Source: a phage
Length of the DNA: 566 nt
Reading direction: 5' to 3' (one strand)
Sequence record: EF517022.1
Part shown: one piece after another, positions 2-566 of the stretch
Layout: every line of letters begins with the position of its first letter
Numbering within the stretch: the stretch's first letter is position 1
Notes under the pieces: model-generated
Database searches by the model: none
Seen by the model: only the letters and a program-made list of their open reading frames with translations
Told to the model about the DNA's origin: nothing
Translations under genes and position numbers: made by a program

Positions 2-106
2 TGGGAAAAAGAAAACCCACCAGTACAAGCAACTGGGTGTATAGCTTGCTTAGAGAAAGATGACCGTTATCCACACACACCTGTAACAAAGGAGCTAACG
101 ATATGA
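2..106 (+). CDS. 1.7: 5'-partial upstream reading frame corresponding to the N-terminal extension of long-form gp1.7, terminated at TGA 104-106 in this sequence
   Basis: Frame 2 is open from the window edge for 34 codons (WEKENPPVQATGCIACLEKDDRYPHTPVTKELTI*), while frame 1 has TGA at 61-63 and frame 3 has TAG at 42-44. The first 26 residues match my recollection of the T7 gp1.7 N-terminus (...WEKENPPVQATGCIACLEKDDRYPHT). The last 8 residues (PVTKELTI) look like out-of-frame read-through. May be better treated as a disrupted part of gene 1.7 than as an independent gene. Confidence 0.6.
   Translation, partial: WEKENPPVQATGCIACLEKDDRYPHTPVTKELTI
49..60 (+). repeat. Direct repeat copy 1 (cttagagaaaga)
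   Basis: Exact 12-mer identical to 495-506. Codons 50-61 in frame 2 encode L-E-K-D. Confidence 0.9.
73..80 (+). repeat. (AC)4 dinucleotide tract at the frame junction
   Basis: acacacac at 73-80, within ccacacacacc at 71-81. It sits exactly where the upstream frame (frame 2) and downstream frame (frame 1) diverge. Confidence 0.9.
89..94 (+). promoter_or_regulatory. Shine-Dalgarno sequence (AAGGAG) for the ATG at 103
   Basis: AAGGAG is a near-perfect complement to the 16S rRNA 3' end and sits 8 nt upstream of ATG 103-105. It lies inside the upstream reading frame. Confidence 0.8.
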
Positions 107-566
107 CCGAACGTGAACAAGAGATGATTATTAAGTTGATAGACAATAATGAAAGTCGCCTAGATGATTTGAATGGCTGTGGTATTCTTTGCTCCAATGT
201 CCCTTGCCACCTCTGCCTCGCAAATAACGATCAAAAGATAACCTTAGGTGAAATCCGAGCGATGGACCCACGTAAACCACATCTGAATAAACCTGAGGTA
301 ACTCCTATAGATGACCAGTCTTCCGCTGAGACAATCGAAGGTGTCACTAAGTCTTCCCACTATATGCTGTTTGGCGACATTGAGGCTATCGAAGTGATTG
401 CTCGTTCAATGACCATTGAGCAGTTCAAGGGATACTGCTTCGGTAACATCTTAAAGTACAGACTACGTGCTGGTAAGAAGTCAGAGTTAGCGTACTTAGA
501 GAAAGACCTAACGAAAGCAGACTTCTATAAAGAATTCTTTGAGAAACATAAGGATAAATGTTATGC
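103..566 (+). CDS. 1.7: Nucleotide (dTMP/dGMP) kinase gp1.7-like protein, short-form start; 3'-partial (runs off the window end)
   Basis: ATG at 103-105 lies 8 nt downstream of AAGGAG (89-94). Frame 1 is open for 154 complete codons to the window end, whereas the other two forward frames are full of stops. Translation begins MTEREQEMIIKLIDNNESRLDDLNGCGILCSNVPCHLC and ends ...AGKKSELAYLEKDLTKADFYKEFFEKHKDKCY. This matches my recollection of T7 gp1.7 from its internal Met (about residue 42 of the long form). Product assignment is from memory, not a search. Confidence 0.85.
   Translation, partial: MTEREQEMIIKLIDNNESRLDDLNGCGILCSNVPCHLCLANNDQKITLGEIRAMDPRKPHLNKPEVTPIDDQSSAETIEGVTKSSHYMLFGDIEAIEVIARSMTIEQFKGYCFGNILKYRLRAGKKSELAYLEKDLTKADFYKEFFEKHKDKCY
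495..506 (+). repeat. Direct repeat copy 2 (cttagagaaaga)
   Basis: Exact 12-mer identical to 49-60. Codons 496-507 in frame 1 encode L-E-K-D. Confidence 0.9.
550..554 (+). promoter_or_regulatory. Putative Shine-Dalgarno (AAGGA) for the downstream gene start at 563
   Basis: AAGGA lies 8 nt upstream of ATG 563-565 and is embedded in the 3' end of the gene 1.7 coding sequence. Confidence 0.5.
563..566 (+). CDS. 1.8: Probable start codon of the downstream gene (T7 gene 1.8 equivalent); only 4 nt in the window
   Basis: ATG at 563-565 in frame 2 is preceded by AAGGA at appropriate spacing. Its position agrees with my recollection that T7 gene 1.8 starts about 8 nt before the gene 1.7 stop. The fragment is far too short to confirm from sequence alone. 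Confidence 0.4.

Follow-up and report, generated by a model that had tools for sequence, protein, structure and literature searches.

An extra AC unit shifts the frame of gene 1.7 in a T7 derivative, at a dinucleotide tract that also varies among natural T7-like phages

The stretch of DNA analyzed here (the window) consists of 566 nts from the phage record EF517022.1. As a whole, it aligns by megablast to positions 8189-8752 of the T7 genome (V01146), which amount to 564 nts in T7. Identity to all T7 records is 97.0% over the full length, the features annotated at the match are "gene 1.7" and "gene 1.8", and the gene order is collinear with that of T7, with gene 1.7 followed by the start of gene 1.8 at the orthologous position. 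By homology, the gene in the window is gene 1.7 from a T7 derivative, and its product would be a dTMP/dGMP nucleotide kinase of the DUF3310 family. DUF3310 (PF11753) is the sole Pfam domain of gp1.7, located at residues 122-184 of the T7 protein, and the window's short open reading frame still matches it with 79 bits (E = 2.7e-22), compared to 81.5 bits for T7 gp1.7 and a cut-off of 24 bits.

All features discussed here are on the plus strand. The window opens inside the N-terminal part of gene 1.7, the rest of which runs in frame 2 from 2 to 106 as WEKENPPVQATGCIACLEKDDRYPHTPVTKELTI*, that is, WEKENPPVQATGCIACLEKDDRYPHT (ending ...GCIACLEKDDRYPHT) followed by the out-of-frame tail PVTKELTI and a TGA at 104-106. 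Frame 1 is closed on its 5′ side by a TGA at 61-63, after which it reads ...THTCNKGANDMTEREQ..., recognizable as ...TCNKGANDMTEREQ..., and leads into an ATG at 103-105. This ATG, the internal start codon, corresponds to Met42 of T7 gp1.7 and shares bases with the stop of the truncated frame (ATGA, 103-106); 8 nts upstream of it lies an internal Shine-Dalgarno sequence, AAGGAG, at 89-94. The short-isoform ORF, which includes DUF3310, extends from 103 to the end of the window at 566, with 154 complete codons and a final incomplete one (GC-) that encodes Ala whatever the next base. Since there is no alternative start in frame 1 between 64 and 102, ATG 103 is the earliest possible start of this frame. 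The ATG of gene 1.8 at 563-565 (T7 8749), which overlaps the end of gene 1.7, is unaffected. The two readings and the coordinates of their ends are all as the initial annotation had given them. In T7, the stop of gene 1.6 also overlaps the ATG of gene 1.7 (TGATG, T7 8166), and with (AC)4 one would have a chain of overlapping stop/start junctions going from 1.6 to the N-terminal peptide, to the short 1.7 and to 1.8. Scans of the window for promoters and terminators stayed at chance level.

What separates the two frames is a single indel, the only one in the base-by-base alignment of the window to T7 V01146. T7 has an (AC)3 tract, CCACACACC, in the context TATC-CACACAC-CTG; the window has (AC)4, CCACACACACC. 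Direct reading of positions 71-81 gives ccacacacacc, with (AC)4 at 73-80, just where it had been reported before. The aligner puts the two extra bases at 72-73, which is equivalent to the addition of one AC unit, and the resulting +2 frameshift falls between gp1.7 codons His33 and Cys35. The initial annotation had proposed precisely this, namely that slippage added 2 nts relative to T7 and thereby split gene 1.7, and the comparison bears it out. The T7 reference has (AC)3 and one ORF, as opposed to the same tract with two frames; the sole frame change of the alignment sits in the AC tract and not outside the 64-103 interval; and deleting one AC unit from the window restores a single ORF that reproduces the T7 protein exactly (...YPHTCNKGANDMTEREQ). 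The indel is a whole repeat unit in a pre-existing tandem repeat, unaccompanied by any other indel, as slipped-strand mispairing would leave it, and we infer that replication slippage is the cause of the extra unit. Tandem Repeats Finder reported nothing on the window, the AC tract being too short for it.

The region around the tract spans 81 nts in the window, compared to 79 nts in some 94 T7 records and in the other full-length matches of the phage collection. An exception is ESh3, with an 82-nt span, which has an unrelated 3-nt insertion adjoining an (AC)3 tract. Thus, none of the ~94 T7 laboratory records carries the allele. The exact window sequence, the 155-aa protein and the 42-aa peptide have no match in any collection searched. 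The exact allele, searched for with a 33-nt pattern and a degenerate 30-nt pattern, is not present in JGI metagenome, GTDB genome or IMG/VR contigs (for IMG/VR, with just two wild-type tracts, this says nothing), and a search for a contracted (AC)2 allele found none. The difference between the window and T7 is a single event, and any claim that the site is non-random rests on its recurrence in other phages, to which we return below.

The frameshift falls within the N-terminal segment GCIACLEKDDRYPHTCNKGAN, which has the pattern C-x2-C-x8-H-x-C. The truncated ORF retains C21, C24 and H33 and loses C35. Comparing the segment across 11 phages whose long ORF is intact, we find 15 synonymous codon variants and one amino-acid change, which implies that in those phages the long form is translated and constrained. 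Such strong purifying selection on the intact segment also means that its loss is not obviously neutral in general. The spacing of the cysteines and the histidine suggests a metal (zinc) site. An AlphaFold2 model of a long-form homolog, built on an alignment of 55 sequences, has a mean pLDDT of 55.7, with residues 1-41 below 50, so the model is too poor to judge a zinc site in the segment. A search by sequence found no solved structure for gp1.7.

Judging by its homologs, the N-terminus of the gp1.7 family is unusually plastic. Among P0003, P0006, P0066, P0077, P0088 and P0048 there are further N-terminal variants: one, MGLLDGDAWEKDYNHSHTCDKG..., has no CxxC, and another belongs to a K1F-like protein in which a remote form of the motif is recognizable, ...CEACNGDDRYPH.... 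Some other homologs (P0004, P0032, P0061, P0065, P0073, P0085, P0091 and P0116) have a ~34-aa Cys/His-rich insertion, for example HSDGMVCNCERDYDTSDGHALDCSI..., directly before DUF3310, at a place that corresponds to about 330-345 in the window, and which looks to be a second optional module in the family.

In contrast to the long form, the short one keeps everything that it would need to be made. The Shine-Dalgarno sequence, the 8-nt spacer and ATG 103 are unchanged in the window, and they are conserved in 9 of 9 natural relatives and at all loci added later. The predicted duplex with the anti-Shine-Dalgarno sequence has -7.9 kcal/mol. RNA folding predicts the same accessibility of the Shine-Dalgarno sequence and the ATG with and without the insertion, and on this ground an effect of the insertion through mRNA structure was rejected. 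The initial annotation had proposed that the long isoform is removed and the short one kept, and the intact internal start and short ORF support it at the level of coding potential. It had also counted a 42-residue N-terminal peptide. The arithmetic (8 + 34) is correct, with the proviso that it presupposes a T7-like sequence in the 23 nts upstream, which lie outside the window.

The overlap of the peptide's stop with the internal ATG is the classic arrangement for termination-reinitiation, and ribosomes that end the peptide at 104-106 may be coupled in this way to the start of the kinase. Both gp1.7 forms of T7 (22,181 and 17,782 Da) reportedly co-purify and have nearly identical kinase activity, as Tran et al. 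are said to have described in JBC in 2012. Other homologs point to the same start. K1F-type proteins begin exactly at the position of the internal ATG, and the kinase of phage R1, discussed below, was annotated by its depositors from it. There are also phages that have the N-terminal segment in frame and whose kinase is nevertheless called from the internal ATG (YZ1, NC_047927, L014; ZH4, OM355495, L033; and loci L018, L021 and L024), so the gp1.7 lengths found in databases (155-157 vs. 179-197 aa) are an unreliable guide to the presence of the long ORF.

The window differs from T7 by 15 substitutions, at positions 19, 129, 154, 161, 180, 189, 218, 308, 319, 352, 363, 374, 415, 511 and 535. 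All except one (an A>G) are G:C>A:T changes, 10 of them C>T and 4 G>A, a strand bias that is not significant (p = 0.18). Nine natural relatives keep the T7 base at nearly all 15 sites, from which it follows that the window's alleles are derived. Nonsynonymous changes make up 9 of the 14 GC>AT changes, where 66.8% is expected if all possible GC>AT changes in the stretch are taken as equally likely (p = 0.78). The nonsynonymous share of the changes fits neutrality. Over the first 133 codons of the kinase body, the window has 4 synonymous and 8 nonsynonymous differences from T7, the reverse of what a pair of natural (AC)4 phages shows (see below).

The short ORF as a whole carries ten missense changes relative to T7: G59S, P61L, P80L, T110I, P114S, P125S, D132G, V146I, A178T and L186F. 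Several are at positions that hardly vary. In an alignment of 120 homologs, the T7 residue is found at P125 in 120, D132 in 119, L186 in 118, P80 in 116, T110 in 114 and G59 in 110, and the window's own residue occurs between 0 and 2 times at each of these six. The four most conserved (116-120 of 120 homologs), P125S, D132G, L186F and P80L, correspond to window positions 352-354, 373-375, 535-537 and 217-219. Thus the short isoform, even with its ORF open, may be impaired by changes at near-invariant residues, and given ten missense changes it is uncertain whether it retains the dTMP/dGMP kinase activity.

GC>AT changes are known to predominate in T7 mutagenized with nitrosoguanidine or hydroxylamine (PMC6042481). 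A nitrosoguanidine context (5′-purine-G) accounts for 7 of the 14 changes, which is about chance, so the changes do not point to one specific mutagen. T7 does not need gene 1.7 in the laboratory, where the gene can be deleted or replaced (PMC9712115; PMC7697293). From the mutational spectrum we infer that the source of the window is a chemically mutagenized laboratory T7 lineage, in which gene 1.7 would have been drifting without effective selection.

Such lineages are on record. The isolates K, K115, P and P82 (AY264775-AY264778) are chemically mutagenized T7 lineages, attributed to Bull et al. (2003, J Mol Evol). Like the window, they show a near-exclusive G:C>A:T spectrum in the same gene, with 7-8 changes relative to 15 in the window. 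Unlike the window, they are mutated at other sites and their gene 1.7 is in frame. A common descent with isolate P was considered and rejected. The one change common to the window and P/P82 is T7 8505 C>T, which makes 1 of the 8 changes of P, and the window does not descend from any of K, K115, P and P82. We observe in passing that in isolates K (CCACACATC) and P (CCACATACC) the AC tract contains a C>T, at the equivalent of window positions 78-80, which in both cases interrupts the repeat, and that K and K115 have a 3-nt in-frame deletion in an A-rich run at T7 8197-8199.

Natural phages tell us more about the tract. The gp1.7 homologs fall into three classes: long proteins that include the Cys/His segment; ~155-aa K1F-type proteins starting at the Met42 position; and T7-like proteins called from the internal Met. 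For those of the third class returned by the homolog search, and for related GenBank phages, we read the DNA upstream of the internal start. Expanded tracts appeared in several of them. (AC)4 is found in a 39-kb Logan contig from ERR779990 and in a contig from ERR477264, both with an N-terminus MSGC... and 84% identical to the window. It is also found in two cultured Kayfunaviruses, vB_EcoP-R1 (OQ703102, from China) and vB_EcoP_LNA5 (MZ311861, from Australia). Two other cases, SHAK9454 (OR594184, ACACACGC) and ERR2029892 (ATACACAC), have (AC)4 with a later point change. Finally, SRR17497105 has (AC)5, a +4 shift that meets an immediate stop in the new frame, while its closest named relative, ZH4, has (AC)3 and is in frame.

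These natural phages are like the window in the tract that is expanded, in the +2 shift, and in its outcome: in every +2 allele, the shifted ORF ends as PV(T/I)KEL..* at a TGA that overlaps the internal ATG. They are unlike the window in that they are 70-86% identical to it and have no G:C>A:T load, and the kinase body of at least one lineage clearly evolves under purifying selection. That lineage is the one of ERR779990 and ERR477264, both (AC)4, which differ by 13 synonymous and 0 nonsynonymous changes in the first 133 codons of the kinase body and encode an identical 155-aa protein. A body that can be translated from the internal ATG alone is thus under purifying selection there, and this is the best available evidence that in this (AC)4 lineage the internal start is used and the short form would be sufficient on its own. 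In ERR2029892, on the other hand, the N-terminal stretch has lost its start codon and its Cys residues and is down to ~85% identity, compared to 94-96% in the flanks, a decay that argues that the segment is no longer usefully translated.

The number of repeats changes over short distances, with 3, 4 and 5 units among close relatives. R1 (4 units) and the intact phage Bia (3 units) are 99.0% identical in the kinase body, and SRR17497105 (5 units) is 95.7% identical to ZH4 (3 units). A local tree of Kayfunavirus does not group the (AC)4 strains as a clade, and R1 is nearest there to the intact Bia. The backgrounds in which the expanded tracts occur are just 70-86% identical to one another, which indicates that the expansions are independent. 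We count at least four such events, and possibly six, a count made from sequence comparison that is subject to the mosaicism of phages, where recombination could have spread some of the alleles, and to ascertainment bias, since proteins called from an internal Met were examined first.

Judged by alignment span, the +2 tract allele occurs in 3 of the ~34 distinct natural phages in GenBank with this segment. Tract expansion affects about 1 in 10 of such phages, and an intact long ORF is missing in about 1 in 6 when other frameshifts are counted. Those other N-terminal disruptions include a -1 near the start in SRR21291463, an extra G together with C21R and C35Y in ERZ28588653 and SRR8353887, and a -1 in the adjacent CCC at locus L028, on a contig with coverage ~3.5, which may itself be an error. 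They also include a -2 shift in three wastewater Kayfunavirus assemblies of one project, Milel (OX460914, L015), Emlis (OX460933) and Midid (OX461104), which share a 2-nt deletion in an A-run of the N-terminal segment (GAGAAAGATG to GAGAGATG). Coming from an A-run and a single study, it could be a systematic assembly error. At the other end of the gene, K1F-type gp1.7 exists in two database versions, one of 155 aa and one of 148 aa with a frameshifted C-terminus ending ...GKKVRTCLLRESQ... (P0118 and P0119 vs. P0068), a hint of another site prone to indels or errors close to the C-terminal AAGAAG region.

Taken together, these comparisons make of the AC tract a putative natural slippage hot spot rather than the site of a one-off event. 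It seems to have gone unremarked; a literature search of incomplete coverage found no paper on an AC-tract polymorphism in gene 1.7. The natural recurrence, the G:C>A:T load and the possible role of the ATGA overlap as a coupling device were all absent from the initial annotation.

We propose the following course of events for the window. A T7 derivative would have accumulated a heavy G:C>A:T load, as in laboratory lines grown with mutagens of the nitrosoguanidine or hydroxylamine type, and replication slippage would have added one unit to the (AC)3 at codons 33-34. Ribosomes coming from the gene 1.7 ATG would then shift frame past His33 and end a short peptide (of 42 aa, given a T7-like upstream sequence) at the TGA that overlaps the Met42 ATG. 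The ~22-kDa long form, with its conserved C-x2-C-x8-H-x-C segment, would be lost as a protein, and the 155-aa short form could remain available, through direct initiation (AAGGAG-N8-ATG) or through termination-reinitiation at ATGA. In this lineage, the frameshift is probably a neutral passenger in a dispensable gene. We give a probability of roughly 0.75 to this reading as a whole, that is, a real slippage mutation with the long form lost and the short-form ORF kept, passively carried in a drifting gene.

One may ask whether the tract is more than a weak spot. CACACAC at codons 32-34 could act as a natural on/off switch for the Cys/His module, with the "off" state repeatedly favored in some hosts. 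We find this doubtful. If it were true, the long form would come and go by slippage, with the internal Shine-Dalgarno sequence and ATG, and the ATGA overlap, securing the kinase body either way; "off" would be favored, for example, where an Avs5-type defense senses gp1.7 or where the module is a liability; and the window would be a laboratory replay of the natural switch.

Are the two extra bases real? The initial annotation had cautioned that they could be a sequencing or assembly artifact or a deliberate edit, in which case the phage would truly have (AC)3 and an intact long ORF. It is in line with that caution that the allele occurs in no other T7 record, that neither the exact sequence nor its proteins are matched in any collection searched, and that the nearby natural frameshift at L028, on its ~3.5-coverage contig, may be an error as well. 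But the insertion of a dinucleotide unit is an atypical error for Sanger or Illumina chemistry, as is well established, and the sibling mutagenized isolates do have real indels in gene 1.7, such as the 3-nt deletion of K and K115. Moreover, independent cultured phages, one from China and one from Australia, share the identical allele, and expanded alleles are present in four unrelated Logan assemblies, Illumina-based data among them. An allele found in independent phages and assemblies is biologically viable, and this makes an artifact less probable than it first seemed; we now regard it as unlikely.

If the mutation is real, it could also have been selected, either by removal of the long isoform or by extra short form made through ATGA coupling. 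The allele does recur and persist in nature, and there are conceivable selective agents acting on gp1.7. The defense protein Avs5 is reportedly activated by it (PMC11897194), and a gp1.7 change, Y128C, arose in phages escaping retron-Ec48 (bioRxiv 10.1101/2020.06.21.156273). The rest of the gene in the window, however, shows no purifying selection and has changes at invariant residues, which fits drift and not tuning, and none of the ~94 laboratory-evolved T7 genomes carries the allele. For the window, we hold a selective advantage of (AC)4 to be quite improbable.

Least of all do we expect that the long isoform is still being made by slippage of the ribosome or the RNA polymerase on the repeat: peptidyl-tRNA-His could re-pair from CAC 74-76 to CAC 76-78 (+2) and restore ...YPHTCNKG..., R1, LNA5 and ERR779990 have kept an intact N-terminal coding part ahead of the tract, and a -1 frameshift is known for T7 gene 10A/10B (mentioned in PMC8923235), but there is no X XXY YYZ slippery heptamer at 71-81 and no obvious downstream stimulator, the Shine-Dalgarno-like AAGGAG is downstream of the site and not upstream, +2 hops are well established to be rare, the N-terminal region of ERR2029892 decays after the shift, and in the (AC)5 allele the new frame runs straight into a stop. 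Nor does the gene look like one with a programmed frameshift, as intact relatives have one continuous ORF and the shifted state is the minority and derived one.

The preferred reading, a slippage mutation carried passively in a drifting gene, can be set against several known systems. The closest is T7 gp1.7 itself, with which the window shares the gene, 97% DNA identity, DUF3310, and the internal AAGGAG-N8-ATG at Met42; unlike T7, the window has its long form genetically abolished by the +2 frameshift, and its short form has 10 missense changes. T7 gp1.7 is reportedly a nucleotide kinase with two forms, in work ascribed to Tran, Tabor, Richardson and colleagues (PNAS in 2008, Mol Microbiol in 2010 and JBC in 2012), and gene 1.7 reportedly makes for sensitivity to dideoxythymidine (Tran 2008). 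The K1F-type proteins (such as those of K1F, C5 and pO103; ~155 aa) start at the Met42 equivalent and are devoid of the N-terminal Cys/His stretch; being "short-only" is thus nothing unusual for a kinase of this family. There is a difference in how that state comes about: in the K1F-type phages, the N-terminal segment is absent or replaced, whereas in the window it is present but out of frame.

The same phage offers a second example of the architecture. In the T7 gene 4A/4B primase-helicase, an in-frame internal Shine-Dalgarno sequence and ATG produce a shorter protein that lacks the Cys-rich, zinc-motif-like N-terminus, a finding said to go back to Dunn and Studier in 1983 and to the Richardson laboratory. 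Gene 1.7 has the same internal-start architecture. No frameshift polymorphism at a repeat is known to switch the long form of gene 4A/4B on and off.

A more distant comparison is with the contingency loci of Haemophilus and Neisseria, where slipped-strand mispairing in tracts of typically many repeat units causes phase variation. Like them, gene 1.7 has a non-triplet coding repeat that varies (3, 4 or 5 units) among close relatives and switches a product off. Unlike them, its tract has only 3-5 units, and what is switched is an N-terminal module and not the whole gene. In several (AC)4 descendants (SHAK9454, ERR2029892), point changes interrupt the expanded repeat, which looks more like fixation than high-frequency reversible switching.

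Taken alone, the window is a modest result. In what is probably a heavily mutagenized T7 line, a dispensable gene of the gp1.7/DUF3310 family has undergone a slipped-strand frameshift of an ordinary kind. It is the natural (AC)4 phages that give it a wider meaning: with their kinase body still under purifying selection, they are genetic evidence for use of the internal start and for the sufficiency of the short form. A short dinucleotide repeat is a recurrent break point in gene 1.7, and because of it the start site of gp1.7 is annotated inconsistently. And nature has set up a clean experiment on the role of the conserved Cys/His N-terminal module, a question made more interesting by the reported activation of the Avs5 defense protein by gp1.7.
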